Source of the DNA: Sedimentisphaerales bacterium
GTDB lineage: Bacteria > Planctomycetota > Phycisphaerae > Sedimentisphaerales > Anaerobacaceae
Reading direction: 5' to 3'
DNA length: 64,000 bases
Assembly: GCA_963708075.1 (NCBI GenBank)
Contig: OY970194.1
Location: 5,088,001 to 5,152,000, forward strand
Notes under the pieces: generated by a model
What the model saw: only the letters and a program-made list of their open reading frames with translations
The model's database searches: none
Told to the model about the DNA's origin: nothing
Part shown: positions 31,672 through 58,993 of the stretch, piece after piece
How positions within the stretch are numbered: position 1 is the first letter of the stretch
How the letters are laid out: each line of letters begins with the position of its first letter
Program-made: the position numbers and the translations under genes

Positions 31672-31785
31672 GGCCTTCGGCTGTTTCTGTCCGTCTTCAC
31701 ACTCCTGTTTGCCTGTCAATTCGACACAAACTGTCGGAATCCCTCACGACACCAAAATCCAAAGCCCGACCCCTTCTTTCCCCTC

Positions 31786-32886
31786 TCAGTGAGTGCATGT
31801 CCATCCTCCCACGACCTCAACGAAATCCTCGCATTCTCTCAACACTCGGCGCAGGTAACTCCTGAATTGCTTCGCCCTCGTCTGATATCCAGTCGCCAAC
31901 AGCCTTCGCTCGATTTCATCGAGTGACATTGGTCGTCGCTGGGTAACACACACAGCACGTGCCAAGACACGGAGTGGAATGCTCCTTTTTGGCAACTGTC
32001 TCTCCACCTTCGATAGGGCCTCGTGCGCGTGCTGCGTTTGGAGTGCGGCCTGAGCTCCCAGTTGAACCAACACCTCACCCGTCTCAGTTGCAGCCACACG
32101 GAGAGAACCGCCGATTGTCTGAGCGTTCTTGACCAGCCATGCTCTCGAACGCGGATGGGCAATCAAGGCTACCGCGCTCGCAAGGAGCAGGCATTTAACC
32201 CAGGCAGGCGAGGATCGAATGAACTCTGCCATTCCTGCGAGCATCCGCAGAGATGCTACAAGCACGTGCCAACTCGCACCCACCGCAATTAGGCTGCCAT
32301 ACTGGACTGTGTACTGCCAACTCGCGGCTCGCGAATAGTCCCTGAGTGTGATGATCACGTTGCGGTCTATCGTAGAAGCCCCCATCCTGGAGATGTGGCG
32401 GTCACTGGAACACACCGCATGCGCGCCAAGCTCCTCATATATTGACACATACGCATCATCATCCGGATCAATGTCAGAAGGCTTCTTGTTGCCCTTGGAT
32501 TCAACAAAGATGATAGAGCCCCGATAGGCTTCCCATGCGAGGAGGTAGCGATGGACAGACACCCCGGCCTCAGCGGCCATCGCCTCAGCATGTTCACGGA
32601 CCTCTTCATCCAGCCAAGTTGGCGCGAACACAAGCAGAGTCCTAGAAGCCACCAATTCCTGGAGGGGAGTCCGCGCAGCGGGATTCTTTCTCCTTCCCGT
32701 CAGCCAGATGAGTTCACTGAAGACGACGTTGGCATCAAGAACCACTCGGAACTGCGCTGGGAGGCCCATGCCTCGGATCAATGGGATGAAGGTGGCAAAC
32801 TCTCGGAGGGGCTGAAGGAGGTCAGACCGAATAAGTTCGGCTGGCGTCGCGTCCTCTGGAAGGCCCATTCGCTTGGCGATATCCAT
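31786..32886 (-). CDS. PIN-domain protein with hydrophobic helices and a C-terminal winged-helix-like domain
   Basis: VVLDANV, EEV, DPDDDAY, SSDRHI acidic motifs; two hydrophobic stretches; RPMSLDEIERRLLATGY...LRRVL...F.EV..GW. Confidence 0.7.
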   Translation of the reverse strand: MDIAKRMGLPEDATPAELIRSDLLQPLREFATFIPLIRGMGLPAQFRVVLDANVVFSELIWLTGRRKNPAARTPLQELVASRTLLVFAPTWLDEEVREHAEAMAAEAGVSVHRYLLAWEAYRGSIIFVESKGNKKPSDIDPDDDAYVSIYEELGAHAVCSSDRHISRMGASTIDRNVIITLRDYSRAASWQYTVQYGSLIAVGASWHVLVASLRMLAGMAEFIRSSPAWVKCLLLASAVALIAHPRSRAWLVKNAQTIGGSLRVAATETGEVLVQLGAQAALQTQHAHEALSKVERQLPKRSIPLRVLARAVCVTQRRPMSLDEIERRLLATGYQTRAKQFRSYLRRVLRECEDFVEVVGGWTCTH

Positions 32887-39913: not shown

Positions 39914-39977
39914 GTGGGAAACGTCGCACAGTGCGGCAGATCGGGAGTGGATGCGTGTCACAGGAAGGGAGAAACAC

Positions 39978-40871
39978 ATGGCCAAGCCAACCTGTCACAG
40001 TTGCGTGTACGCGTATTGGGATCGGAGTCTGTGGATGCGGAGCCTGGCGTCGGGCTTTCCGGCCCGGCCGTTCTGCGCCAACCACCCGGACTCGCCCGGC
40101 CGGGAGCGGGAAACCCCGTGCGGCGAGGTCTGCCGCAACTACCGCCTCCGGCCCAAGACCCCGGACCTCGCCGACGGCACGGTCAAGCGAATCCCCATCG
40201 CGGGCGGCCTGTACGCCTACGTCGATGCGGCCGATTATCCGGAGATCAGCCGCCACAAGTGGCGCTTAGTTGGCACCGGCTACGCCGGCCGCCACGAAAA
40301 AGGCAAGCTCATCTTCATGCATCGCGAGATCATGAAGCCCCCCAAGGGAAAGGTCGTGGACCATATCAGTGGCCACCGCATGGACAATACCCGCGCCAAC
40401 ATGCACATCTGCACGCCCGCGGAAAACAACCGCAATCGGGGCAAGCACCACGGCACCTCCTCGCAGTACCTCGGCGTGTTCTACCACAAACCGACACGGA
40501 AATGGCTCGCCTCGATCGGCATCGGCGGCAAACGCAGGAACATCGGCCGCTTCGACGACGAGGTCGAAGCCGCCCGCGCCTACGACCGCGCCGCCGTCGA
40601 GCAGTCAGGCGAGTTCGTCCGCCTGAACTTCCCCGACGAATGGCCGCCCGAACGCCGCCGCCAAGTCCACGCCGAAGCCCAAAGGACGGCGAAGGAGCAC
40701 AAGCCCGCCGAAAGAAAGAAAAGCAAGAGCCGTCCCGCCCGGACAAAGACAGCCAAACGCAAAAAGCCTCCTGTGTCAGTCCCGCGAAAGGCGGTAGGGG
40801 CGAATCATCATTCGCCCGCACATCGTCACCGCGCAGAGACACGGGGACGCAGAGCACCCAGACGTAAGTAG
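39978..40871 (+). CDS. Cys-rich-HNH-AP2 domain protein (copy 2)
   Basis: CHSC...CANHP...C; MHREIM...VDHISGHRMDNTRAN...ENNRN; GRFDDEVEAARAYDRAA; GGAAGGGAG RBS. Confidence 0.88.
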   Translation: MAKPTCHSCVYAYWDRSLWMRSLASGFPARPFCANHPDSPGRERETPCGEVCRNYRLRPKTPDLADGTVKRIPIAGGLYAYVDAADYPEISRHKWRLVGTGYAGRHEKGKLIFMHREIMKPPKGKVVDHISGHRMDNTRANMHICTPAENNRNRGKHHGTSSQYLGVFYHKPTRKWLASIGIGGKRRNIGRFDDEVEAARAYDRAAVEQSGEFVRLNFPDEWPPERRRQVHAEAQRTAKEHKPAERKKSKSRPARTKTAKRKKPPVSVPRKAVGANHHSPAHRHRAETRGRRAPRRK

Positions 40872-41186
40872 GGTGGGTTCTCAACCCACGCGGACGGACT
40901 GAAAACTACCAACCGAGAACGGACAACTGATTGTCTTCCGCAAATTGCACGGATTTTCGCAGATTCACAACGGGCAACTGATCGTCTCGCGCAGAGACGC
41001 CACGACGCAGAGGATAGAAGGAGACGGGAGGAGCGTGGGAAGGGAGGAACTGCCCAATCCGAAATCCGCAATCCGCACTCCGCAATCGGGTTGCCTCGCC
41101 CGGCCTGCGCCCCAATCGCAAATTGCAGATCGTAGATCATAAATCCAAAGGGCGTCCCGCCGTCCGCCCTGCGGCCCCGGACCCTG

Positions 41187-41282
41187 TTAATTCCCAGGTC
41201 CCAGTTTTCTATAGACGAAGATGCCAACCACGGTCAGAGCGATGACGATAATCAAAGTCCAGTAGGAAGCGATTGCCAACAT
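41187..41282 (-). CDS. 31-aa single-TM small protein
   Basis: MLAIASYWTLIIVIALTVVGIFVYRKLGPGN*, with GAGGT just upstream of the ATG; below the ORF-track length cutoff. Confidence 0.55.
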   Translation of the reverse strand: MLAIASYWTLIIVIALTVVGIFVYRKLGPGN

Positions 41283-41574
41283 AATGCACCTCGGTATGTG
41301 TGAACCTCGGGAGACGATCAGGCATCACGGTCCGCCCAGGGATTTCAGGCGGAACGTACGCTGCCGATAGAGATATATTAGGCTTCCCTTGTCGGGTCGT
41401 CTATGGGGTGTAACCCTACCCGGCCCTATCCTGCCCGGCTGTGGACCAGACCAGGCCCTCCACCCCCACGTGCTCTGCCGGACAGTCACGCCTCTTCATT
41501 CCGCACTCTGCAATCAACAATCCGCAATCCCCCCTTCTCCCCGAAGAAGTACCGTACCCCTTTAATTCCCCGGG

Positions 41575-42495
41575 CTAAGCGATGGGTTGGCGGCACGTGC
41601 GGAGGCGAGAGAGTTCCGGGTCAACGTACAGGGTCTGTTGAGAAGACTCTATCTGCGCCCTTTCGAAGATGAGTTCTGAGGAACCAAACAGGCCTGCGTT
41701 CTCCGCTTTCAGTCTCCGGGCGGTCATACGGCAGTACTCCCGGTCGATCTCGATGCCAAGACTGTTGCGGCCATTCTTGAGGGCGGCAACCATCGTGGTC
41801 CCCGAGCCGCAGAAGGGATCGAGCACTGTATCACCTGTGAAGGAGAACATGCAAACCAGTCGCGTGGCAAGCTCCAAGGGGAATGGGGCCGGATGATTCC
41901 GGGTGGACGCGCCGGGAATGTTCCATATCTGCTGGAACCAGTCGTCGAAGTTCTTCTTGTCGATCTTGCTCTGGCGGCGTTGTTCCTCCGTAGGCTGACG
42001 GTAGCCGCCGGCCTTTCTCTGCATCAGGATGAACTCAATGTCATTCTTGATGATCGCGTTCGGCTCATACGGCTTGCCGAGGAACTTGGAGCCGTTCGAG
42101 ACTTCGTATGAGGCGTTGGCGATCTTGTGCCATATGATGGGGTTGAGATTGTCGAATCCGATCTTACGGCAGCGCACGGCGATATCGGCATGGAGCGGAA
42201 ACACAAGATGGCGACCGAATTCGCGTCTGGATACGCAAACGTCGCCTACTACACAGACGAGACGACCGCCTGGCGCAAGGACCCGAAAGACGTGTCGCCA
42301 CACCTTTTCCAACTCATCCAGGAATCGCTCGTAGTCATCGATGTGGCCGAGCTGGTCATCATGCTCATTGTACCGTTTGAGGTTCCAGTACGGTGGTGAC
42401 GTGACCACAAGATGCACGCTCTCCGTCGGGAGAAAAGACAAATCCCTTGCATCGCCATTTATAAGTCTGTGCGTAGTCGCATTCATGTTCATCAT
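41575..42495 (-). CDS. site-specific DNA amino-methyltransferase, beta class (N4-C/N6-A)
   Basis: VTSPPY precedes HPAPFP and VLDPFCGSGTT; ATGA overlap with the upstream restriction enzyme. Confidence 0.92.
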   Translation of the reverse strand: MMNMNATTHRLINGDARDLSFLPTESVHLVVTSPPYWNLKRYNEHDDQLGHIDDYERFLDELEKVWRHVFRVLAPGGRLVCVVGDVCVSRREFGRHLVFPLHADIAVRCRKIGFDNLNPIIWHKIANASYEVSNGSKFLGKPYEPNAIIKNDIEFILMQRKAGGYRQPTEEQRRQSKIDKKNFDDWFQQIWNIPGASTRNHPAPFPLELATRLVCMFSFTGDTVLDPFCGSGTTMVAALKNGRNSLGIEIDREYCRMTARRLKAENAGLFGSSELIFERAQIESSQQTLYVDPELSRLRTCRQPIA

Positions 42496-43223
42496 GCGGA
42501 TATAACCAGATGCCCAATGAGAGCTCTGGCAAACCTTTCCATGGATAAGTCCTGTGCGGGCGTAACATAATCACCGTTCTCGCCGGTCGAAGGTTCAGAC
42601 ATAAGGAAGGCAGCGGACGTGTAGTGCCTCTCCAGGACAAGTTTGCGGCAGAAAAGCTCGTACCGCCGTGCGTAGGACGAACCGACGAACTCAGGGAACA
42701 CCTTGAAGTGAGGCTCGTTCACGCGTACCGCGTGAGTTGAAGAGGGGCTGTCCTCGAGCATGAAGAAGTAGCCGAGAAACGGCTGCGGGCTCGCCGCATA
42801 GGCCCCTTCTCTGTACGCGGTCCACAAGTCCAATGCACTGCCCATCGCCTCCTCGGTTCTGTTATTGAAGTTATTGCCAAAGGACGGTCCCACCTGCGAC
42901 TTCGCCTCAATGGCAGCGACGAGCGTACCGTCCTTGACCACGACCAGATCCCACTCCTTGGTAGGTCGGAAGAACCCGGGCAACTCAAGGGCTCGTTCGC
43001 AGAAGAGGCACTCTCGTGCGACCCCTGCGTCACAGATCAGGCTGGTGAACAAGTGGATAAAACCATCCATCTGTGCGCCACCCGTGACGGCACCTCTCAG
43101 GCCCTGATCAAGCTTGCCCGTCTTCTGTTGCTTCTTGCGTTGAGCCGACCGGGTCTGCCAGTAATGAGCGACTGCCTCTCGTGTATGCCTCTCGATATTC
43201 AGTAGGGTCCTGTTGTCCTGCAT
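42492..43223 (-). CDS. type II restriction endonuclease, XhoI/PaeR7I family
   Basis: RGAVTGGAQMDGF, LPGFFRPTKEWDL, IEAKSQVGPSFGNNFNNRTEEAMG. Confidence 0.85.
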   Translation of the reverse strand: MQDNRTLLNIERHTREAVAHYWQTRSAQRKKQQKTGKLDQGLRGAVTGGAQMDGFIHLFTSLICDAGVARECLFCERALELPGFFRPTKEWDLVVVKDGTLVAAIEAKSQVGPSFGNNFNNRTEEAMGSALDLWTAYREGAYAASPQPFLGYFFMLEDSPSSTHAVRVNEPHFKVFPEFVGSSYARRYELFCRKLVLERHYTSAAFLMSEPSTGENGDYVTPAQDLSMERFARALIGHLVISA

Positions 43224-43516
43224 GGGGCGAATTATATCAGGTTCTCCGCGTTCATCCAGTCTTCACGGGTGAATTATCGCCTGTCAGGCATGAGAGTGGC
43301 AAGGGACTGCGCAGCGAGGGATGGTTATCGGGGGAATTAAAGGTGTCAGGTATTTTCTCCAGATGCCAATGACGGAAAGGCCGTGGCTGGCTTAGCCCGT
43401 TTCGAATTTCCGGCCCTGATTATTCGCGTTGGTCTCGGATTTCGATATTCGAATTTGACCCGATGCCGGAGTTTCGCGAGGTGGGTGTGTTTTCTTCGCT
43501 CGTACAACGGGCGGCG

Positions 43517-43835
43517 TTAGACCCCCGCAGCGGCCGTCGCGGCCGAGGAATCGTTCTGCATCATGATCATCAGGTACCATCCGAGCATCACCATCCACGG
43601 CAATTCCGGTAGCTCTTGCGCTCCGGGCAGAATGGTCACGTCGGCGGACATGCTCAGGAGGCCGCGATTGCGATAGTGAATCAGCGACTCCCCCGTCTGC
43701 GTCTTGAACTCGTACTGCGTCTGCCAGAAGTTGGTGTTCGCCGGATATTGGCGCCCGTCGGGAAGCAGGAGCGTTCCACCGCCGCTCCAGGTGTTATTCC
43801 TGAACGTGGCAATCTCCTCGTCAAAGTCGCAGACA
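43517..43835 (-). pseudogene. C-terminal fragment of a hypothetical protein
   Basis: Protein-like EIATFRNNTWSGGGTL...LPWMVMLGWYL. The apparent GTG start lies inside a repeat motif (43841..43867) and has no RBS. Confidence 0.55.
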
Positions 43836-43984
43836 CAGCTGGGGGTCACACCTACACATTTCACATTCTTGGGGGAATTAGAAGTGCCAAGGACTCTTTT
43901 GGCCTGAGTCGCCGTAAGTGTCAGTCTGGCAAAGGGGGACTTCGGAGCGCGGAGTGAGCAGTGCGGAATGAAGAGACAGGTGTC

Positions 43985-44290
43985 AGGGATCGGCGATCAG
44001 GGGTCGGGGACGGACGGCGGGACGCCGGATTTCGGATTGCGGAGTAGGGAGGAGCGGCTGGATGCCGTGCGATTGCGGATCGGGGGTTCATTTCGGTGGT
44101 TCGTGTCCTTCGCGGCTGAAAAAGACAGAAGAATCGGTGTGTGAAACACACCCTGCCGGCTGTCGCCATTGCCGTGTCCCGGCTCTTTATCTGCGTTCAT
44201 CGGCGGTTGAGAAGCGGTTGCTTGTTGATGGTTGTTCGTTGTTCGTTCGAAACCTTTGCGGTCTTGGCGTGCTTGGCGAGAGGCGATCTT
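43985..44290 (-). repeat. about 305-bp mosaic repeat, right arm (inverted)
   Basis: Reverse complement matches 39529..39846 with few substitutions and a different heptamer copy number. Confidence 0.9.
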
Positions 44291-44758
44291 TTCTTGTGAA
44301 GAGTCCGCATGGGCTGAAGCCCATCCTACCCTCCGCGGTTCAGAAAAGGATTGGATTCCCGGCCCGGGGCGGAAAGACAGATTGGTTGTGCGAACATACG
44401 TAGTTCACCCCATTGACGCGCCGACTGTTTTGAGGTGTAATGGCCGCGTTACGAGTGCAATAATGATACTAACTCAGATCTTTGAAAGACTGAACTCAAG
44501 GCACTCCGTAACAGGGAGATAGATGGAACGGAGAACGCTACGGATAGCGCCACGGATGGCGCTTGTCTCCCCTCTTCGCCGGCAGAGTCCTTACCCCCCC
44601 CCACAGTGGTCTGACGTCCTCTCTCGCTCTATTGGCCCGGACGGCGGCCCGAGTGATTGCGGAGTGCGGAATGAGGAGCAGTAATCGGTAGCCGGTAGTC
44701 GGTAGTCGGTTGGAAACCTGGATTCCCACCCCCGATCAGGTCGAGGGCAGGCTCTTCG

Positions 44759-44810
44759 CGGGAATGATATAGAAGGGCGGCGGGGCGGGTCAGGAGTTGG
44801 TGGTGAGGGC
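44759..44810. repeat. direct repeat duplicating the mcsB 3' end
   Basis: CGGGAATGATATAGAAGGGCGGCGGGGCGGGTCAGGAGTTGGTGGTGAGGGC is similar to 45589..45641. Confidence 0.85.
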
Positions 44811-44855
44811 GTGCCGATTGCGGATTGAGACCGGTTGTCAGTCCCCGGTTGGCGG

Positions 44856-45101
44856 TTAGACGGGGACTTTGGCTTTGTCGTAGAGGAATTCGGGCGCGAA
44901 GTCAGCTCCGTTGGGCCAGGTAATGGTGTGCAGATCGGGGTTGATGACAAAGGTCTTGAAGTAGGCCGGGTCTTTGAGCGGCTCGAAGACCTCGCCGTCC
45001 AATTCGTTGCGAAGATCGACATCGCCCTCGGCGCCGTCGGCGAACCGGACGTGAATCACGTAGTCGCGGACATGCTCGGCTTCGATCACTCTCGGTATCA
45101 T
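44856..45101 (-). CDS. DUF2442 putative antitoxin
   Basis: VRFADGAEGDVDL...GEVFEPLKD...TITWPNGADFAPEFLY. Confidence 0.85.
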   Translation of the reverse strand: MIPRVIEAEHVRDYVIHVRFADGAEGDVDLRNELDGEVFEPLKDPAYFKTFVINPDLHTITWPNGADFAPEFLYDKAKVPV

Positions 45102-45105
45102 TTTA

Positions 45106-45363
45106 CTACTCCAGCGGCTCGATCTTTTGCAGTGGGCGTCTGGCCTTGGCCCGTTGCCAGTTGTCGAGCAGGTCGTCCTTGTGCAGGTCCAGCCATTCCA
45201 ACACCAGCCGCAAGGCGCGCTTGGGGAACCAACCGTCAACAATGCCTGTTTCGATGTCTACGGTGACTTCATAGTCCGCGTATGTCGCGTGAAAATGCGG
45301 CGGCGCGTGGTCACGGTAGAACATGCCGATCACGATCCCAAGAAACCTGGATATCTCTGGCAT
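45106..45363 (-). CDS. DUF4160 putative toxin
   Basis: MPEISRFLGIVIGMFYRDHAPPHFHATY...W...H..DLLDNW...KIEPLE. Confidence 0.88.
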   Translation of the reverse strand: MPEISRFLGIVIGMFYRDHAPPHFHATYADYEVTVDIETGIVDGWFPKRALRLVLEWLDLHKDDLLDNWQRAKARRPLQKIEPLE

Positions 45364-45620
45364 AACTCAATTTTACACAAGAGTTTAGGTCGATGCAAGC
45401 TCCGGCGGGCGGATTGCGGATCGAGGAGGCAGGGGTCGGGGGTCAGGGGCGGGCGGCGGGACGCCGAATGCGGATTTCGGATTTCGGAATGCGGAGTGAA
45501 AAGGCAGCAAGAAGGTGTGCGGTGCACACCCTACACAGTCTGATCGGCGTTCATCTGCGGCTAAAAGAGACTGGATTCTCGATCAGGTCGGGAATGACAT
45601 CGGAGGGGCGGCGGGGCGGG

Positions 45621-46748
45621 TCAGGAGTTGGTGGTTAGGGCTTCGCGGATGATCTTGGCACGGAGGGCGTCGCGGTGGGCGGCGTCGAGGGACTGGCCGT
45701 AGTTGAGTTGCAGGTGGGCCGGCAGGGTGAGCATGAAGAGTCGGTTGATCGTGCGGATGGACAAGCCGTGCTGGTCGTTGGCCTCGGTGCCGTTACGCAG
45801 GGCGCAGAGACGCTGGATCGCGGGGGTGGAGGCGCCCATGTGGGCGTGCATGTTCAGGCCCAGGCGGAGGTGGCTCAGGAGAAAGAGCGCTTCCTGCGAG
45901 CTGATCAGGTGGGCGTTTTGGAGCAGGGCCATCGCCCGGGAGATTTTGTCGTCGAGGGCGTCGACCTGGCTGGTCAGGAGCTGGCGGCGGGCTTCCTTTT
46001 CGTACTCGACGACTTCGGGGATGATCTCGCCCTCGAAGCGCGAGACGATGGCTTTTTCGCTGATGCCGAGGGTGACCTGGTTGGAGAGCTGGTAGAGGTC
46101 GCTGACGGCTTCGCTGCCCTCGCCGAAGAGGCCGCGGACCGCCAGGCCCATGTCCTTGGCGGCGTTGAGGAACTTTTCGATTTGGCCGGTCAGTTTCAAC
46201 GCCGGCATGTGCAGCATCACCGACACGCGGATCCCCGTGCCCAGGTTCGTCGGGCACGCGGTCAGGTACCCGAACCGCGAGCTGAACGCATAATCAACCT
46301 TCTCCTCGATCAGGTCATCGATGCGGTCGATCTGCTCCGCGCACGCCGCAAGCTGGCACCCCGCCTTGAGCACTTGGATGCGCAGGGCATCCTCTTCGCA
46401 GATCATGGCGGTGAAGGATTCGTGCTTGGCGATGATGGCGCCGCGTGGGCCTTTGGCTTGGGCGAGATGGCGACTGATGAGGTGGCGCTCGACGAGCAGG
46501 TCGCGATGGAGGCTGGAGGCCCTCTCGACATTCACGTAGAAGACCTCGTCGCCGAGGTCCAGCGACATCAGGACGCCCTTGAGCTGGCTGAGGATTTTGG
46601 CCTTCTCCTCGTCCGAGCAGTTGCCCAGGAATCTATGCCCCGCAAGGTTCCTGGCCAGGCGAATCCGCGAGGATACGACGATGTCGGCCAGCGGCCCGCT
46701 GCCACTGAACCATTCGTTGATGTCGGTGCTGATATCGCTCAATCTCAT
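45621..46748 (-). CDS. mcsB: protein arginine kinase McsB
   Basis: SSRIRLARNL, LVERHLIS, GYLTACPTNLGTG, VRGLFGEGS, YQLSNQVTLG; downstream of mcsA. Confidence 0.92.
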   Translation of the reverse strand: MRLSDISTDINEWFSGSGPLADIVVSSRIRLARNLAGHRFLGNCSDEEKAKILSQLKGVLMSLDLGDEVFYVNVERASSLHRDLLVERHLISRHLAQAKGPRGAIIAKHESFTAMICEEDALRIQVLKAGCQLAACAEQIDRIDDLIEEKVDYAFSSRFGYLTACPTNLGTGIRVSVMLHMPALKLTGQIEKFLNAAKDMGLAVRGLFGEGSEAVSDLYQLSNQVTLGISEKAIVSRFEGEIIPEVVEYEKEARRQLLTSQVDALDDKISRAMALLQNAHLISSQEALFLLSHLRLGLNMHAHMGASTPAIQRLCALRNGTEANDQHGLSIRTINRLFMLTLPAHLQLNYGQSLDAAHRDALRAKIIREALTTNS

Positions 46749-46786
46749 CGTAATCGCCTATGACTACCCCCGGCGTCGCGCCCGGT

Positions 46787-47281
46787 CTATTCCATCTTCT
46801 TGATCTCGTCGCGGAGCTTGGCCGCAAGCTCGTAATCCTCGTTCCGCACCGCCACGTCCAACTGCCGCCGCAGGTTCGTCAGTTCCACGAGCCGCCTGGT
46901 CGCCTGGGGCGTCTTCGACGGCACCTTGCCCGTATGCGTCGTATTGCCCCCATGGGCCCGCTCGATCAGCGGCAGCAACGCCGCCTCGAACACCTCATAA
47001 TCATCCGGGCACCCCAGCATCCCCTCCTTGCGGAGCCGCGCCAGGCTGAACCCGCAGTTCGGGCACACCGTCTGCTGGTCCGACGGCCCGAAGATCTCGT
47101 CATCCCCCGGCTGCGACGCCAGCAGATGGCTCAGCAGCTCATTGATCGACATCTGGCTCTGTGCGGCGATCCCCTGATCCGCGGCACATTGCTCGCAGAT
47201 ATGCATCTCCGTCCGCACCCCCTCGCTGATCTCCGTCAGATGGATTGTCGCTGTCCGCTTATTGCATATCTGGCACTGCAT
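46787..47281 (-). CDS. mcsA: McsA (CxxC motifs + UVR domain)
   Basis: CQIC, CEQC, CPNC, LGCPDDY, HTGKVP, EDYELAAKLRDEI. Confidence 0.92.
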   Translation of the reverse strand: MQCQICNKRTATIHLTEISEGVRTEMHICEQCAADQGIAAQSQMSINELLSHLLASQPGDDEIFGPSDQQTVCPNCGFSLARLRKEGMLGCPDDYEVFEAALLPLIERAHGGNTTHTGKVPSKTPQATRRLVELTNLRRQLDVAVRNEDYELAAKLRDEIKKME

Positions 47282-47469
47282 AAATCCCGTCGAATTCGCT
47301 CCTGCGTTCACACTATCTCGATCCGGCGGTTTCCCGGACCACAACGGATACGTCCCGGCCCGCCCTGCGTTCGGCATTATACCACGCCCACACGTCCTTC
47401 ATCGGCAAATTCCCCCCCGGCAATCAACCCCCGTCGGAGGAAATCACCTTCCCTGCCATCCCCGCCCGT

Positions 47470-48260
47470 GGATACAGGCGAATGATCATTCGCCCCTACA
47501 TCCATTTACCTGCCCATTATACGCCCCGCCCCGCAATCCGCAACCCGCAATCGGCCCGATCCCTGATCCCCGACCCTGACCCCTGCCTCTTCATTCCGCA
47601 ATCAGGTCATTGCGAGCGAAGCGCGGCAATCTCCATCTTCCGACCGGAGATTTCGCAGGTTCAAGTAGGCTCTCAACCGGGAAACTACCAACCGAGAATC
47701 GCCAACTGGTCTTATTCCGCACTCCGAAATCCGCATTCCGCATTCCAACGGTCCTGCCGCCCCCCAAATCATCAATCGTACATCATCAATCATCCATCCC
47801 TTGGCCCCTGACACCTGCTCCTCATTCCGCAATCCGGTGCCCCCGCCGTCGTGCCTCGAAAGCCGAAATTGCCCAATCCGCCGTCTCATTAGACGCGGAC
47901 GGCACCGATTCTTGCAGGGTGTGCACGGCACACCGACGCCTCTATCAACACCTGTCCTGCCACAGAGACCACCGAGGACACCGAGAACCTGAGAGAGCAT
48001 GTAGGATGGGCTTTAGCCCATGCGGACTCTTGTTCGACGCGGATTCCACGGATTCACACGCATTCTCGTAGGGTGGGGCTCGCCCCACCGTCCTCCCATG
48101 CCATTTCCGCGAACGCGGTAGGGGCGAATCATCATTCGCCCGCACATCTTCACCACGAAGAGCCTGCCCTCGACCTGATCGGGGGACACGAAGAGCCCAG
48201 CGCGGCCTTCAGCCGCAACCAAAAAATGTGCTCGCACAAAGGCACCAGGACACGAAGAAG
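47470..48260. repeat. dense mosaic of short repeat families
   Basis: TCCGCA(A/T/C) heptamers, GTCATTGCGAGCGAAGCGCGGCAATCTC, GTAGGATGGGCTTTAGCCCA, GTAGGGTGGGGCTCGCCCCACC, GTAGGGGCGAATCATCATTCGCCC and CACGAAG units. Similar mosaics occur at 40790..41150, 45400..45600 and 53800..54235. Confidence 0.85.
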
Positions 48261-48351
48261 GACAGATGTGGGAATGGCTGCTGGGATGAGCAGTAGAGAT
48301 GTGGCTGCGGCTGCGTGTCAGCCGTGCTCAATGCAGATGCATCCGGCCAAC

Positions 48352-48840
48352 TCAGACGGAGGCTGCATCGTCAACGTCTTCCACCAACATGCAGGGCAGG
48401 GGATCTTCTCCCGTCTGCTTTCGCCACTCCACGATCGTGTGGAGTACAATAGATGCGGCTCTGACTCTTCTGTCCGTATCGTGTTCTCCCGCCAGCGCAA
48501 AACGCCCCAGTTCCATTTCCAACTGTGACCCGTCTTCTCTCGACCCAATGTCCTTGGCCATCCTGTAGCGGTCCACCAACAACTCAAGGAAAGCCGAAAT
48601 GGCCTCCGGCTTGATGTCGCCGTTCATGTTGTGCTGATAGATCCCAACGTACAAACGCAATACCTCCGTTAAGCCGAGCCGGTTCTCAGAGTGCTCCGCC
48701 CAGGGCAGAAAAGGCAGGCAGGCGAAATGCAACCAGAAGGCTTCCATCTTGGTGTATCCGACCGCCTGAAGTTGCGCACTGTGAGATCGGTAGAGCAGAT
48801 ACAGCGAGCTTAACGTTTGAACTTGTTGCTCTCGGCTCAT
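48352..48840 (-). CDS. hypothetical protein
   Basis: 162-codon ORF with protein-like composition; no recognised motif. Confidence 0.55.
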   Translation of the reverse strand: MSREQQVQTLSSLYLLYRSHSAQLQAVGYTKMEAFWLHFACLPFLPWAEHSENRLGLTEVLRLYVGIYQHNMNGDIKPEAISAFLELLVDRYRMAKDIGSREDGSQLEMELGRFALAGEHDTDRRVRAASIVLHTIVEWRKQTGEDPLPCMLVEDVDDAASV

Positions 48841-49299
48841 GTTCTCACGCCAAACAGCATGTCTTTCGGTTGCCAACCGGTGATGCGCTTGCCCCGTATG
48901 GCACTATGGTCCTTCTCCCTTCAAGTGCCTTCATGGCCTTCCCATGTAACGCGGTTTCTGAGGTTCTCGGAAGAAAATCTGCGCCCCGGCCGGACGCCAT
49001 CCTGGGTAGCCACGGTTGGCGGTTCGCCTGTCCCTTCGCCCCATGCTTTAGCAGGAGGTCGGCGACAGAGCGGCGTAGATGCATTGGAGTGGACGTATAT
49101 CGATGTCCGCCCGGGACGAGCGGCTGAGCCATGGCCGAGGCTGGGATTCACCTATTCCTTTGCCACGGACGTGTGTAGCAACCGGAGGACCGTTGGGTGG
49201 TTGTAGATGTGAACACAGGGATGGTCCTCCCGGTCGTCCCTTAACATAGTCAGCGACAGTCACCGACTACTTGCGCCAATAATAGGTGACTGTCCCTAG

Positions 49300-49474
49300 T
49301 ATCCGTTCGACAAAGGCCCCGAAGTCCTTCAACCGCACGCCCACGTGGGAGAGATAACTCATCATGCCTCCGACATTGGCCAGGATGCGCTGCATGCCCC
49401 GAATCCGCACGCGATCCCAGCCGCTGAGAACCCCCCGTGACATCCTTGTGATACTTCTGTATAGAAGCCTCCAT
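49300..49474 (-). pseudogene. 5' stub of a putative transposase-like gene
   Basis: AAAGGAG RBS, MEASIQKYHKDVTG / VLSGWDRVRIRGMQRILANVGGMMSYL...LKDFGAFVER, cut off at the hairpin at 49255..49294. Family assignment is from recall only. Confidence 0.45.
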
Positions 49475-49965
49475 GGCGTTGCTCCTTTGGAACGATACTG
49501 TTCGGCAAAAGCAATACCGTACCCCAAAGCGCAACGCCTTTCACCTATTTTGGTTGCGGCCGAGCGTAGCAAGGCCGCGCTGGGTCCTTCGTGCCCTTCG
49601 TGGTTAAAGAATTCGGGACAGGTCAAGGGCCGAACGCCATGCACGCTCCGGCATTTTGCAGATTCATGCATATTCGGCCCTCGGAAATGCAGGACTTGCC
49701 TGCACAATTAGGTGTTTCCACGAATAGATATGTGCGACCGGGGCGTGGTAGAATTCTCCCGGCTTTTCGGTCGAGCACGGAGGTTCGGCCTGTGTCACGG
49801 AGGATGGGTCACGCTCTAGTGTCGGTACGGAGAGGGTCTTTCGATAACAAATAGTGGTCGGCCGGACCTTGTCGGTCCCTTTGCGCCCGCCGTCATGGCT
49901 TCATCGTTTGATGTCCGTCGGTCATGAGCAGAAACGGTCTATCATCCAGGGAAAGGAGAACAGAG

Positions 49966-50742
49966 ATGAACACTCGAATGGTGATAATTGCATTGGCGCT
50001 TGCCATAACAGGAGCGCCTGTGGCTGTGCCGGCCTATGGGGCCGTGACGGTGGTCTCGCAGTACTACAGGGCGTGGGGCGGGGCCTACGGCGGAATATGG
50101 GACGACACCTCCCCTTTCCGTACGCCGCTGGCTTCTTTCCAGCAAAGCTACTCCAGTGAATCTCATGCACTACCTGTGTCCGGCTACTGTGAAGTGCCTT
50201 GGACTTTGGGCGACCTCAATGGCTATATCGGCGCCGGCAGCGAAGCAGGCATGTTTCGCGTCAGATCATATACCACGGGGGACGGTTCGTACCGGCAGGA
50301 CGGCATCGCGTCACATTCACACGCTGAGTCCCGGGTGGCCTTCCAACCAGACGCGCGTGAATTGGAACTCGTACTGACGGCGCTTCCTGTGGACGCATGG
50401 GTCTGGTGGCTCAACCCGCCCTTCGAGGGTTTTGGCTTCGTCCTAACCGATCTCACCACGAATGTGCCGATCGCATCAGAAGCGTGGGTCGAGGCGAGGA
50501 ACATGTTGCTCTGGGAAGAATGGATGGGCGACGACTTCACGCAAGGGTTCAAAGGCAGATACGCGGTTGACGTGAGCCATACGTATGAGTTGCTGCTCTG
50601 GGCCGGGGTCGTGGACTCGATGGACGATGATTGTGGTTACGATGTCACGCTACTGGCCGAGATGCATTGCATCCCCGCCCCAGGCGGCCTCTTGCTCGCC
50701 ACCATCGGCGCCGGGTTTGTGGGCTGGTTGCGGAGACGATGA
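49966..50742 (+). CDS. secreted protein with a PEP-CTERM-like (IPAP) sorting signal
   Basis: Signal peptide; C-terminal IPAPGGLLLATIGAGFVGWLRRR; AAGGAG RBS. Confidence 0.85.
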   Translation: MNTRMVIIALALAITGAPVAVPAYGAVTVVSQYYRAWGGAYGGIWDDTSPFRTPLASFQQSYSSESHALPVSGYCEVPWTLGDLNGYIGAGSEAGMFRVRSYTTGDGSYRQDGIASHSHAESRVAFQPDARELELVLTALPVDAWVWWLNPPFEGFGFVLTDLTTNVPIASEAWVEARNMLLWEEWMGDDFTQGFKGRYAVDVSHTYELLLWAGVVDSMDDDCGYDVTLLAEMHCIPAPGGLLLATIGAGFVGWLRRR

Positions 50743-50801
50743 GTCTCGCACGTGGAGGACGGCCACGGCCTAGGTCGTAGCCAACAGAAAGGAGAAGGTG
50801 T

Positions 50802-51506
50802 ATGAGAAGAATGGTCATTGTTTTTGGCATTGCATTGTCCACGGCCTTGGCAGTTGCCAGGCCGTCGCTGGCCGCGGTCACCATCCTCAGCGGAGAACAA
50901 CACATCTGGGGCGCGGCGGAATGCACCTACTACGTCGGGGATCCGCCGGGCGTGCCTGTCACAGAGCACGATTCGTACGATTCCGGGGTAGTCCCCTGGG
51001 ACGGTTCATTCCTGTCGGACATAGCGCACGTTGACCCGCACGTCTACGGCCACAGTTGTATCGGCGGCCTCTATGCGTATGTGGAAAGCGATGCCTGGTC
51101 GCCGGACCTGGACTACGCCGGGGCCAGGGCGACCGCCGAGGGCACCTGGACCTTCCGGCCGGGTGGAGACAGGCTCATCCTGGCGACGGAGTTCTTCCTG
51201 TGGAATTACCAGTTGGATCACTTGCTCATCGCTGTGACGGATCTGACGTCCGCCGATCAACTCTATTATCTTCGGGATCAGCCTCCGATGAACTCGATCG
51301 ATGGCCAGCGACTCGAAGAGGTGCTCTCGGTCGACCCCACGCATGAGTACCGCCTGGATGTGTACCTGCATTCGGGCGCCAACGACGATGGGCCGTGGTA
51401 CGGCTTGATCCAAGTGCTGGACCCCGTTCCCGCCCCCGGCGCCGGGCTGCTCGGGATGCTCGGCATGGGCCTTCTTGGCTGGCTCCGCAGACGCAAAACC
51501 CTGTAG
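50802..51506 (+). CDS. secreted protein with a PEP-CTERM-like (VPAP) sorting signal
   Basis: Signal peptide; C-terminal VPAPGAGLLGMLGMGLLGWLRRRKTL; resembles the upstream gene. Confidence 0.85.
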   Translation: MRRMVIVFGIALSTALAVARPSLAAVTILSGEQHIWGAAECTYYVGDPPGVPVTEHDSYDSGVVPWDGSFLSDIAHVDPHVYGHSCIGGLYAYVESDAWSPDLDYAGARATAEGTWTFRPGGDRLILATEFFLWNYQLDHLLIAVTDLTSADQLYYLRDQPPMNSIDGQRLEEVLSVDPTHEYRLDVYLHSGANDDGPWYGLIQVLDPVPAPGAGLLGMLGMGLLGWLRRRKTL

Positions 51507-51553
51507 CCGAATCACGCCAACATGGCAGTGGTGAAAAGGGGTCAGGGAAAAGG

Positions 51554-51628
51554 GAAAAGGGGTCAGGCTTTGGGTATTGGCGCGGAAGAATAGGGTCGGC
51601 ACCTACATCCAAAGCCTGACCCCTTTTC
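51554..51628. repeat. perfect 20-bp inverted repeat (GGGGTCAG family)
   Basis: GAAAAGGGGTCAGGCTTTGG ... CCAAAGCCTGACCCCTTTTC; related half-site at 31757..31780. Confidence 0.85.
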
Positions 51629-51731
51629 TCTTTCTGTTCCGGCGACTCTTCAAGGACCACTTGAATGGCACCTAGCCTTCACCTCTGTCAAGTTAGCAGA
51701 ACGCCCCTCTGAGATTGCTGACTACAACGGG

Positions 51732-53612
51732 TTGAAACGCCTCATAGACATTTCACACGATGCTCACTACATGATCACTCTCACTTTCAAGGAGGGTTTC
51801 ATGAAAGGATTCGCATGTGAGAAGAATGTCGCAGAAAGGTCTATTGTCTGGGCAATGATCAGGGGGGTCTCTTTGGTGAGTGAGCAAGCGGTGACTGAAG
51901 ATCAGGTCGAGCACGTGGTTGATTCAATAGTCACTGATGAGGATGCAAAGAGCTTCCATGCCCTGAGGGCTGCCACGTTTCTCCATTATGTCGCTGAGTC
52001 CCTGCCGAAGCCCATTGTGATTGATGGATGGGATGACGCTTCCTTGCGAATAGGACTTGGATGGTTGGGTAGGTCACGAGATGCTGGTTCGGATATCGTC
52101 GGGATTGATGACTGTACCACGTATATCAAGCAACTGCTGGATCGTCTGTGGGCTGACATCAAGAAGCTCCTTTCTACACTCGACCGGGAGAAACTCGTCG
52201 AGAAGCTGATTCTGAATATAGAGGCAGCACGTGTCGAACGAAACCAGTGGAAGAATACGATCAGGGCTTGCCTTGCTCAACATGTTGACAAAGAAGACGT
52301 ATTCCAGGCGGCGACAACCAAGCAGTATTCTCTAAATGCGGCGATGCTTGGATCCCGGATTGTGATTGAAATGGCACTATGCGAGTGTCCGCTGACTGAC
52401 GGGGCAAGTCCTGGAGAGATTGAAGTTGCCCGGCTCCTCGCATACGCCTCTCTCATGTATCATATGGGTGGATATTCTGACGCAATCAGATATGAGGCCA
52501 TGCCGGCAAAGATCAGGGTATCTCATTTCGGCGATGTCATGATGGACCACTCATTCACAGACACGGTACTCCATAGGTTTGGCACCGAGATCCAGAAACG
52601 GACACTGCGATCTGCGGCGCAGAAATATGGCGACTTGTTTCGGGAGCCGGAAGGCGTGGCATGCGTCGGCGACCTGTTTGTGACCGAATTCAATGACGCA
52701 TGGTTGGATGAGTATGGGTTTACCATTGATCAGTGCAGGGCGTATATTGATCATCTTGAAGATTTAGCCTTGAAAGAGAATACCCCTGTCGTGCGCCTTC
52801 ATTCCCATGATCTCCTGGACCTGGGGAGTGACGACATTGGTCTATCGCGTGAGACGATGAAAGCGATAGTGGATGCGCTTAGGCTCTGGCCGAGAGACAC
52901 GTGGCCGTCCGCACCGGATGGCTTTTCAGACAGAGATTGGCAGCCCTGGAAATTTCGACGGCGACTGTCTGTGGTGGAAAGACCCTTCGTACAATTGGAT
53001 AATGGGGATGATCCATTGTTCCTTGTAGCCCCGGACTTGATCAGGGAGGGATTTGCCTATGTACTCCGATGTTCGTATGAGGCTACTTACGAGGAGAGGC
53101 GATTCAAATCTCACAAGATGCGGAAATGGATTGGCACTCGAAGAAACGCCGCCGGCCATGATTTCAACGAGAAAGTGGCAGAGCGTCTCCGTACGTTGGG
53201 CTGGATGGCACGATCAAACGTCAAGTTGACTGAAATACTGAACACCAAATTAGATCGGAACTACGGCGATGTCGATGTGCTGGCGTGGAACAAGAAGCTC
53301 AATCGTGTCATGGCCATCGAATGTAAAGACCTGGGATCAGCAAAAACGCATGGAGAGATTGCCTCACAACTCCAACAGTTTCGGGGACGCGACACCGACA
53401 AAGGCAAACCAGACAGACTGAAGAAGCATCTCGATAGACTGGAGGTGCTTCAATCCAAGCGAGAAGCAGTCGCTAGGTATGTTGGATGGGGACGGCTCTT
53501 GAGCATCGAAGGGCACCTCGTATTTGAGAACTTGGTCCCGGTCATTTTCTCCCTGGATGACACTCTGGCGAAAGTAAAGATCACCGAATACGACTTCCTG
53601 GACTCAATCTGA
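51732..53612 (+). CDS. large protein with a C-terminal PD-(D/E)xK nuclease domain, probably 5'-truncated
   Basis: GHDFNEKVAERL...YGDVDVLAW...MAIECKD. The frame stays open upstream to the 51609..51628 repeat with no ATG or RBS; visibly lower GC than the backbone. Confidence 0.7.
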   Translation: MKRLIDISHDAHYMITLTFKEGFMKGFACEKNVAERSIVWAMIRGVSLVSEQAVTEDQVEHVVDSIVTDEDAKSFHALRAATFLHYVAESLPKPIVIDGWDDASLRIGLGWLGRSRDAGSDIVGIDDCTTYIKQLLDRLWADIKKLLSTLDREKLVEKLILNIEAARVERNQWKNTIRACLAQHVDKEDVFQAATTKQYSLNAAMLGSRIVIEMALCECPLTDGASPGEIEVARLLAYASLMYHMGGYSDAIRYEAMPAKIRVSHFGDVMMDHSFTDTVLHRFGTEIQKRTLRSAAQKYGDLFREPEGVACVGDLFVTEFNDAWLDEYGFTIDQCRAYIDHLEDLALKENTPVVRLHSHDLLDLGSDDIGLSRETMKAIVDALRLWPRDTWPSAPDGFSDRDWQPWKFRRRLSVVERPFVQLDNGDDPLFLVAPDLIREGFAYVLRCSYEATYEERRFKSHKMRKWIGTRRNAAGHDFNEKVAERLRTLGWMARSNVKLTEILNTKLDRNYGDVDVLAWNKKLNRVMAIECKDLGSAKTHGEIASQLQQFRGRDTDKGKPDRLKKHLDRLEVLQSKREAVARYVGWGRLLSIEGHLVFENLVPVIFSLDDTLAKVKITEYDFLDSI

Positions 53613-54377
53613 GGGAAGAGGAGAGTCAGGTCAGGGGGTGGGGACGGGGCCGCATCTTTGATTATATAATTATTTGGGGAGAAGCGGCCGCGTAGTAAGA
53701 GGGCCAGCCCTCAAATTAACAATTAAGGCCTTGCGGAGCCAGTCGCGGGCGGGGAATGATGGGGACATTCTACTTCTCTCGGAGCCGGATGGCTTGAATT
53801 CGGAACGAGGAACCGAGAAGCGATACGTGACAAGGGACAAAGGGGGAGGACGGCGGAGCCCTCGGGAATACGGAGTGCGGATCGGTAGTCGGTTGCCGGT
53901 TGAAGCCCTGGATTCCCGCTTTCGCGGGAATGACATTGAACCCGCATGGGCTGAAGCCCATCCTACATCCTGGTTGTTCGTTGGAACCCTCTGCGGCCCT
54001 TGGCGGCCTCTGCGGTTAAACGATAGACTGCCGCGCTGCGCTCGCAATGACATGCATAATGCAGTTTTCGCGTGGTTCGCGTCCCCGGATCAGAGCCTGC
54101 CCTCGACTTGATCGAGGGTCGAGGGCAAGATTTCGCGGTTTCCATATCGGCGTTCATCTGCGGTTGCATCTTCTCCGTGTCCTCTGCGTCTCCGTGGTGA
54201 AAGAACCTGGATTCCCGCCTTCGCGGGAATGACATGAGGGGACCGTGGTTTGGCGAAACCTGGATTGCCGTGCAATCGTAGAATACGTTGCCACTTGGCA
54301 CCAGGAAAAGGGCCGGCGGACGATGAAGTCTGCCGGCCCTTGTGTGTCTGGTGATTCGGTTGGGACACCTGTTGCGG

Positions 54378-57342: not shown

Positions 57343-57951
57343 TGTTGGTCCTCCCTTCGATTGAGCCTACTGAATTGTGTTGTTATGGCATTCACCGGGA
57401 CCGACTCAGTACGGTCCCACAGGGCGAAATATATGCAGGGTCACCTTCCTTCCGAAAAGATGATGTGCAGAGCTATCATGGAACAAACCTGGACGCGAGA
57501 CAGGTGTGGATTCAGCACATCTACCCTTGAAGCACGTGTATAACAGTCCACATTGCATGAGGGCCTCCGAATCCGATTCGCCGCACGGTCGCCCACTCCA
57601 AACCGTTGTGACACCGTTAAGAACCCACACGTCCGTAAGCTCTTATATCAAATCCCGCCCCCTAACGCAATAGGATTTCAGTCCAGGCTCTGTCCGAAGA
57701 CAGCGAGTTGAGATATCGCTGCGGAATGGCGGGGACAGCCGGGAAGGGCGGTGCTTTAAGGAGATGGGTGAGCTCAGAACCCTCATTTCTGAGCCAGGAA
57801 TGCACATTTGCAGTACTCACGGCACCTTCCGGAACCGCCATTCGGGACAGAAGTCTATTAAAGACCCAGATAATCGGTGACTGTCAATAGTCCGTGCACA
57901 GGCAGTTCCCCGGCCGGGACAGGTCCACCCTCGGGATGGCGTCGGCCGCGA

Positions 57952-58485: not shown

Positions 58486-58993
58486 TATAAGCCACTACAC
58501 TCCGCCCCGAAAGCCAAAATTGCCCAATCAGCCGCCCCCGCTCGGTGTGCACGACAGGATTGTGGAAGACCAAGCATGAGGTTGTGGCTGGCAGCGTAGC
58601 TTGTCCAGGCCCAATCTCAAGAATGTGGGACGTTGCCAACGAGTTGGGCGGTGCCACCCGGCGAGCGGGAGACTCTACGCTAAACACGTATGGACGTGGA
58701 TACACCCTTGTGATACAGGGATTTATAGCTGACAATCCTCGACGGAGGACCGGCAACCGCTCTTTCAACCACAGATGGACAGCCGTGGGCATAAATGAAC
58801 CCCTGACACCTTGATTCCCCCCTGAGTTGCCGACCCGAGCTGCTGAAATCGGATGCAGTACCCGGGTATCACGGGACATCTGCCGTGCAGGAGCACAGTC
58901 TATGAGGTCAAATGGGAAATCCCCGGCCAAAAGAGCTTGCTTAATGCCAAATTCCGGATATTGTTTATGGGTCGAAGGAATGAAGGATCTTCT

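Follow-up and report, generated by a model that had tools for sequence, protein, structure and literature searches.

Short G-rich repeats stand at the borders of accessory genes in a stretch of 64,000 nucleotides from the genome of a Sedimentisphaerales bacterium (the window; contig OY970194.1, called C1 here, positions 5,088,001-5,152,000), and they raise the question of whether this locus holds a system that gathers genes from outside. A preliminary description had read them as one motif, marking the joints of an integron-like system without attC sites that captures defence genes and gene fragments. By sequence, the repeats are the terminal inverted repeats (TIRs) of TIRtron/TIRYT elements, which carry Y1 HUH transposases. 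About 13 element types are represented, as solo ends, as mini-elements and as stacks, and the outer end of each TIR is joined, independently of the others, to arbitrary DNA, often in the middle of a gene. The joint lies about 5 to 16 bases outside the G-rich core, on the outer side of the TIR, and the DNA on its target side is arbitrary.

The genome is a single 7.5-Mb contig with 60% G+C (GC), in which we called 6,238 genes with a simple dicodon model. The host genes of the region are dnaK, a PAS histidine kinase gene, mcsB, mcsA, coaD and a radical SAM gene. The dnaK-mcsB and mcsA-coaD intervals each span about 10 kb here and are short in some relatives: among 16 mcsB loci of relatives, coaD lies less than 600 bases from mcsA in 8, and mcsB lies about 300 bases or less from dnaK in 2. 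Judged by this gene order, both intervals are therefore insertions relative to the congeners (which are about 80% identical in McsB), and our finding covers two accessory insertions.

Rather than a single motif, the window carries six or seven TIR types, and every type tested matches the element ends of one transposase clade of its own, found either in this genome or in congeners. The E-type site at 43842 (43833..43869 with its leader, plus strand) matches at 26 of 26 positions the ends of elements encoding a TIRYT of 336 amino acids (aa) at C1:478630-479766 and 6908899-6910035. The B-type pair 49255-49297 represents the ends of a 235-aa TIRYT element (C1:4636826-4637604), and the D-type pair 51559-51623 those of a 324-aa TIRYT element (C1:5283337-5284374). 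The main motif of the preliminary description, our F type, frames 226-aa TIRYTs in four congeners; in this genome it is present as solo copies and as one remnant, to which the last 44 codons of its own transposase gene are joined. Y1_Tnp (PF01797) scored above cut-off at 13 loci of the genome, and the TIR-flanked proteins have the NHxH and YxxxNP motifs. Intact TIR-flanked transposases of types A, B, D and E are present in this genome (for type C the left end only), and those of types F, G, J and K were found in congeners. The earlier suggestion that the enzyme would be a Y1/HUH transposase encoded outside the window was thus correct. These proteins are 315-340 aa long for types C, D, E, G and K and 220-240 aa for A, B, F and J. 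Types H, I, L and M are TIR-like by sequence and context alone, and no flanked transposase was found for them.

The GGGGWSAS-type core described for TIRtrons is matched, or nearly so, by types B, C, D, E, J, K and L; the F-type core is GG(G/T)GTC(A/C)G, and several types have a GGTGTC or GGGCC core variant. Among 38 parsed elements, 14 had matching TIRs at both ends and 12 at the left end only. TIR type followed transposase clade with 8 changes, compared with a shuffled mean of 16.9, over 26 elements; the F-type elements were missed by the pattern used and 12 elements without a left TIR were excluded, and because kin share TIR labels this concordance shows clustering only. The REP (repetitive extragenic palindromic) hairpins that had been taken as the model do not describe these repeats. 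Solo TIRs fold no better than shuffles (36-mer folding energy, 12 of 13 types; the A type, with 6 sites, is lower), whereas REP1-4 fold clearly lower than shuffles and four of the five REP families of this genome are hairpins. The TIRYTs found here are probably members of TnpA-Y1 subclass 2.1 (PMC6006769), whose proteins are marked by a C-terminal extension or a helix-turn-helix (Bac_DnaA_C-like).

The motifs themselves are real. When up to 4 mismatches are allowed, the 20-mer at 43331 matches 15 sites of the 7.5-Mb genome, including 4 within the window, and none on either strand of a 2-Mb order-4 Markov simulation. The coordinates given earlier are exact, as is the 23-of-29 inverted pair around the restriction-modification (R-M) genes. 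Strong TIR-profile matches in the window lie at 31773(-), 41561(-), 43341(+), 43842(+), 49297(-), 51559(+), 51623(-), 53646(+), 53700(+) and 53761(+); those at 53646 and 53700 had not been listed before. Three earlier sites scored poorly on the F profile, at 41186 (0.7 bits), 43882 (8.7 bits) and 58811 (1.3 bits), where the background is about 1.6 sites of at least 8 bits per 64 kb. All three are weak by sequence alone; the 41186 site is backed by a break in homology.

Such homology breaks mark these TIRs as recombination joints at accessory-gene borders, as had been proposed. By comparison with intact homologs, four window genes are cut 5 to 16 bases outside a TIR core. Three of these truncations had been claimed before and hold against homologs; the fourth, in a 28-aa gene, is added here. 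The frame 43517-43864 (minus strand) consists of the last 104 or so residues of a family of 170-175 aa without a Pfam family; its 104 3' codons are 43517..43832, and DNA homology begins at 43832, position -10 from the E core. At 49302..49476 (minus strand) lie the 5' 58 or so codons of an insertion sequence (IS)-like gene, whose remainder is absent here and whose congener frames are about 510 aa where intact. Homology of this stub ends at 49302, 5 bases outside the B core, in all 5 congener matches that reach that far. The stub seems to carry a frameshift as well, since at 49431 the contigs of two sequencing runs show a one-base difference from the window. The family is multi-copy in congeners and often lies at contig ends. 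The nuclease gene at 51639..53612 (plus strand, GC 0.51) is the C-terminal half of the anti-phage gene Upx, a family of about 1,250 aa, and matches the PADLOC Upx profile from 645 to 1260 of 1271; in the frame that runs from 51630, homology begins at codon 4-5, no more than about 16-19 bases away from the D core. Finally, the 31-aa membrane-peptide-like gene at 41187..41282 (minus strand) is natively 28 aa long in three congener copies. It diverges at 41201, position -15 of a decayed F-like TIR (41170..41201, minus strand), and its last codon and stop are replaced, the new stop being supplied by the repeat leader; this accounts for the overlap between motif and stop codon noted earlier. Missing halves were sought for two of the four cut genes, and neither the 5' part of the 43517 gene nor the N-terminal 600 or so residues of Upx is present in the genome, which has an estimated completeness of 93%. 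No obvious target word is common to the three base-level joints, a number too small to speak against one. As these joints lie at sites picked by the preliminary description, they show that such joints occur and not how frequent they are.

The R-M pair, by comparison of lengths and domains, is whole. The Type II N6/N4 methyltransferase gene (41575..42495, minus strand; PF01555, PADLOC MTase_II) encodes 274 aa after SPPY, compared to 273-275 in 4 of 7 homologs, and the XhoI-family restriction endonuclease gene (42492..43223, minus strand) matches PF04555 with E=6e-92. The pair lies between two divergent F-type TIRs, one with its outer end 3 bases from the methyltransferase stop (41543..41571, minus strand, 34 bits) and the other with its outer end towards the 5' region of the pair (43331..43359, plus strand, 37 bits). 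Homologs of the 43517 gene at 30 loci and of the R-M genes at 19 loci had no TIR beside them; one homolog locus of window cargo has a mini element 1.5 kb away.

Genome-wide, profiles for 13 TIR types gave 296 matches, of which 232 sites were kept; the 64 dropped fell to score thresholds set by eye, a K-type look-alike repeat and self-overlaps, and 18 of those kept lie inside called genes, so that some are probably false. The sites form 75 clusters, and 82% have a neighbour within 3 kb, compared with 20% when sites are placed at random between genes (500 draws, of which the highest gave 29%). The two sides of a TIR differ. In 57% of 231 cases the gene nearest to the outer side has a GC below 0.57, compared to 17% for the inner side, 18-19% at REPs and 11-13% at random positions. 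The outer 1 kb is lower in GC than the inner in 169 of 232 TIRs (REP control, 167 of 326) and in 74% of 75 islands when one TIR per island is taken. REPs showed no polarity in either of these tests. At island edges, the inner side points outwards for 59 of 86 TIRs. In congeners the effect is weaker, the outer GC being lower at 27 of 40 usable loci and at 22 of 34 without a transposase inside (60 loci were fetched, from which 4 of this genome and 16 with short flanks were removed).

Of 64 neighbour pairs 501-3000 bases apart, 35 have their outer ends facing, 8 their inner ends facing and 21 are co-oriented; the 51 pairs within 150 bases comprise 33 co-oriented (29 of mixed type), 15 inward-facing (14 of them same-type minis) and 3 outward-facing. 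The 43 outer-facing pairs enclose 0.45-4.4 kb with a median GC of 0.544; 34 of these segments have a GC below 0.57, compared with 9.6% of random windows, and all 10 inner-facing segments have a GC of at least 0.585. Different TIR types bound 35 of the 43.

Part of the cargo of these outer-facing segments is recognizable. We scanned 72 of 80 open frames, in 30 regions covering 36 of the 43 segments. Defence matches include a complete Hachiman pair, an MmeI-type IIG R-M gene and a Dsr1 gene in three frames, and further matches are an IS-split AbiEi gene, Fic, a RelE-like/helix-turn-helix pair, a TIR-like plus SIR2 pair (here TIR is the protein domain) and a CdiI immunity gene. MacB, Band 7 and FGE-sulfatase-like genes are among the non-defence matches, and 41 of the 72 frames have no Pfam match. 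Defence genes are thus a visible minority of the cargo, in a count made without a control set. The Hachiman genes hamAB (C1:4866082-4870143) are enclosed by an F TIR and a J TIR, whose outer ends face the genes at a distance of about 80 bases on either side. At C1:5813026-5815671, two 98%-identical E-type minis of 275 bases, each holding about 200 bases of non-transposase DNA, bracket two FGE-sulfatase-like frames. A 1,248-aa frame without Pfam or PADLOC match, a candidate defence gene, lies between outer-facing E and B TIRs (C1:6699642-6703801).

In 33 comparisons of repeated copies, with reciprocal pairs counted twice, the copies share a TIR and its inner flank; their outer boundary falls between -16 and +4, and in 19 of the 33 between -10 and -6. 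No copies share a TIR and its outer flank. Two E elements agree to 6 bases outside the core on both sides. Short duplications at the ends, which we call stutters, are found at the outer end of 27 of 232 TIRs, at the inner end of 3 of 232 and at 14 of 892 control sites. Neither an empty site nor a duplication of more than 5 bases was found for 23 two-ended elements, a comparison of low power. The densest stack that we saw, at C1:213238-213351, has four co-oriented TIRs of three types, 29-43 bases apart. At C1:5283337-5285904 a D element is present in partial tandem copies whose TIRYT genes are cut and restarted at TIR outer ends, and at C1:6906499-6910280 an E element stands behind the first 25 codons of a C element, the TIRYT being cut at the TIR outer end.

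How would such ends bring genes together? Going by HUH chemistry, the enzyme would hold the TIR strand by its 5' end until a 3'-OH, whichever is at hand, frees it. Working in trans, a TIRYT protein may bind the TIR as a sequence and not as a hairpin, nick just outside it and join one end at a time to any 3' end or target. A TIR already resident in the chromosome, where its inner side anchors it, would be spliced onto outside DNA, and two TIRs with facing outer ends would trap the segment between them. The outcome would depend on the strand that is joined: a foreign strand would give capture, nearby chromosomal DNA a deletion, and a nascent strand just entering the TIR a stutter or a stack. Random breakpoints would leave fragments such as the Upx half, the 43517 gene and the IS stub, and selection would retain whole useful units such as the R-M pair and Hachiman. 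That genes are cut at these joints is observed; we regard this inside-out capture, in which outer TIR ends splice outside DNA into the chromosome, as having about an even chance of being right.

Several observations weigh against capture. Two genome-wide truncation tests set outer ends apart from neither inner ends nor REP controls: one found 7 outer and 9 inner cases among 232 (REP, 12 and 11 of 326) and a second 16 and 12 among 230 (REP, 35 of 596), the second with a coding filter trained on host genes, which overlooked the Upx cut as well as the stub cut. Eight of the 13 TIR types have no intact flanked transposase among the Y1 hits of this genome, including J, the commonest with 55 sites, and F, which surrounds the R-M pair. 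Inner-side joints and deletions also exist, as in one C and one F TIR, each fused to the middle of its own transposase gene, and in minis, and the decayed B-like TIR at 57861..57888 (minus strand; 17.5 bits in a relaxed scan) turns its outer end to the host gene coaD, an exception to the polarity. In congeners a coding-likeness score ran the opposite way (10 of 34). That no copies share an outer flank and a TIR is due in part to the cargo being single-copy. There is no leading/lagging strand bias (113 of 232), and no gain or exchange between strains was seen in contigs of 4 of 8 runs, at low depth. Contig joints listed from the runs mostly join host repeats, and none is at a TIR. A contig aligning to 49302-49576 after 67 unaligned letters most likely comes from another intact IS-like copy and was not counted. 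Finally, capture leaves unexplained the source of the host DNA on the inner side of a solo TIR.

The main alternative uses the same outer-end joint. Islands would arrive by other routes, TIRtrons would land in or beside them, and their outer ends would delete adjacent DNA in cis until something under selection is reached; polarity would result because ends facing host genes are purged. Such trimming explains the missing gene halves, the TIRs abutting intact stops, the stacks and the lack of target duplications, and adjacent deletion is a documented behaviour of IS elements in the part of the literature we consulted (PMC11708052). It requires, however, a separate delivery for about 40 small unrelated islets, and of the possible delivery routes we surveyed tyrosine recombinases, all four of which lie 37-128 kb from any TIR. 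Random landing also predicts foreign DNA on both sides, whereas the inner sides look host-like, and deletion alone does not produce end stutters. We consider trimming a serious possibility, though less probable than capture. The two readings share one joint and are compatible with each other.

A true cassette system, which the preliminary description had proposed and in which units from one TIR joint to the next TIR would be excised as circles and re-inserted at TIRs, seems improbable to us. TIR-headed units of 90-275 bases do recur at distant loci, often ending where the next TIR starts, and the prevalence of co-oriented close pairs (33 of 51) also fits. The best support is that a 61-base G unit (53691-53751) in the stack of three co-oriented TIRs at 53632..53836 (plus strand; H 53646, G 53700 and I 53761) is cleanly absent from a paralog stack, C1:6580457-6580600, which has H and I. 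However, this indel is flanked by a 6-of-7 microhomology, so slippage explains it equally well. Gene-sized cargo lies mostly between outer-facing TIRs of mixed type, the 30 and 19 homolog loci have no TIR beside the gene, and cuts in mid-gene are unexpected from site-to-site recombination. The mid-gene joints on one side of one repeat and the mixed-type pairs are also why we do not regard the system as integron-like. Passive co-occurrence, with TIR debris gathering in accessory safe havens and having no role in boundaries, would fit the clustering alone and the null truncation tests, but it is very improbable and already largely refuted by the mapped joints, given that homology breaks off in four cases no farther than about 16-19 bases from an outer end, that the polarity is one-sided and lacking in the REP control and, at low power, that none of 23 two-ended elements is a clean insertion.

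This family of elements has been described before; the mapped outer joint and its inside-out, mixed-type polarity appear to be new. TIRtrons and TIRYTs were described in 2013 by Di Nocera, De Gregorio and Rocco (PMC3733652), in the passages available to us, as HUH/Y1 transposase genes flanked by TIRs, with no REP association, with several TIRYTs of differing TIRs in a genome and with TIR families that occur as singles, dimers and groups. The flanking TIRs, the core, the dispersal and the presence of several types in one genome are all found here, whereas the passages of that paper and of PMC6006769 that we consulted mention neither the joint position nor a link to foreign or defence DNA, a polarity or mixed-type pairs and stacks. 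We found no report of gene capture by TIRYTs, nor of such a joint and polarity, in the literature covered, which did not extend to subscription papers, and found neither an assigned function nor biochemistry for any TIRYT or, as regards function, for subclass 2.1. A role of RAYTs against incoming DNA has been raised as speculation (PMC5581495). REPtrons and RAYTs have related Y1 enzymes, and short RAYT genes with hairpin REPs on their flanks are present in this genome too, but the solo TIRs are no hairpins and the REPs have no polarity. One-ended transposition of IS91 is similar in having an HUH enzyme, a single acting end, rearranged adjacent DNA and no target duplication; according to the portion consulted (PMC13181058), IS91 differs in its distinct ori and ter ends, a specific target and the carrying of DNA beyond ter, whereas the TIRtron ends are inverted repeats, their targets seem arbitrary and it is the target side of the joint that holds the foreign DNA.

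In inverse, or inside-out, transposition, IS ends join foreign DNA and lose target duplications. Like adjacent deletion, where ends join arbitrary nearby or foreign DNA and target duplications are lost, it involves DDE elements with two cognate ends, whereas here we have Y1 enzymes and solo ends of about 30 bases in mostly non-cognate pairs. Integrons (IntI, attI, attC) resemble this locus in that short repeats at variable loci enclose closely packed small genes with accessory and defence roles. They differ from it in that no integron integrase is present here (the best TIGR02249 score is 82 bits against a cut-off of 265), that there are no hairpin sites, that ends are mixed and divergent and joints are in mid-gene, and that no co-oriented, site-bounded whole-gene cassettes recurring with their site were found.

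The window has further features. A D-type TIR at 31750..31785 (minus strand, 35 bits) has its outer leader abutting the stop of a PIN-like gene (31786-32886, minus strand; PIN_2, E=7.5e-4); this stop ends 12 bases from the D core. The weak, degenerate F-like site at 43871..43898 (plus strand) follows the E TIR with 4 mismatches in 20, and that at 58794..58821 (minus strand), one base short and with 4 mismatches, is doubtful. The B-type mini element at 49250..49302 has two TIRs, the left one decayed, and the D-type mini at 51538..51638 carries a stuttered duplicate of its left outer end and has a sister mini at C1:2287684; between their outer ends lie two PEP-CTERM-type secreted-protein genes (49960..51506, plus strand; weak PF07589). 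An HNH_3 plus AP2 gene (39951-40871) lies within repeat-rich DNA; it appears mobile, because relatives are found at differing positions near mcsAB/coaD in four congeners and also inside two TIR-bounded segments of this genome. Stuttered short-unit repeats of the GATTGCG/TCCGCAA type (41055-41160, 43950-44100, 45400-45510, 47530-47850) have many genome copies, often immediately at the inner side of a TIR. A toxin-antitoxin-like DUF4160/DUF2442 pair (44856-45363) beside mcsB is bracketed by a repeated stretch (44750-44810 and 45580-45640) and not by TIRs, and a 174-aa frame (48352-48876, GC 0.55) has no Pfam or PADLOC match, no paralog and no detected TIR border. Any TIR is present in only 3 of 17 regions retrieved around mcsB of relatives. 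One congener (G012:C80, 12965-15304) has its own TIR-bounded islet, with C, J and G types; it lies upstream of mcsA, at the junction that also holds the second insertion of the window.

With the joint and the polarity mapped, the function of TIRYTs becomes a question that can be assayed directly. If capture is true, small defence islets would be built without an integrase or att sites; if trimming is true, it would explain the paring down of islets and the finding of defence genes as halves. More broadly, and tentatively, as something just short of an even chance, we suggest that TIRYT ends may form a distributed, integrase-free acquisition platform, with chromosome-anchored TIRs of many types and a single-strand transposase acting in trans to join their outer ends to incoming DNA at arbitrary points, taking in foreign pieces of 0.5-4 kb at dozens of loci, where selection would keep intact defence and surface genes. 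Subclass 2.1 is the second largest Y1 subclass, present in 14.9% of strains in the part of the survey of Quentin et al. (2018) that we consulted (PMC6006769). Such a platform, if it exists, would mean that a large and so far uncharacterised class of Y1 transposases has a function.

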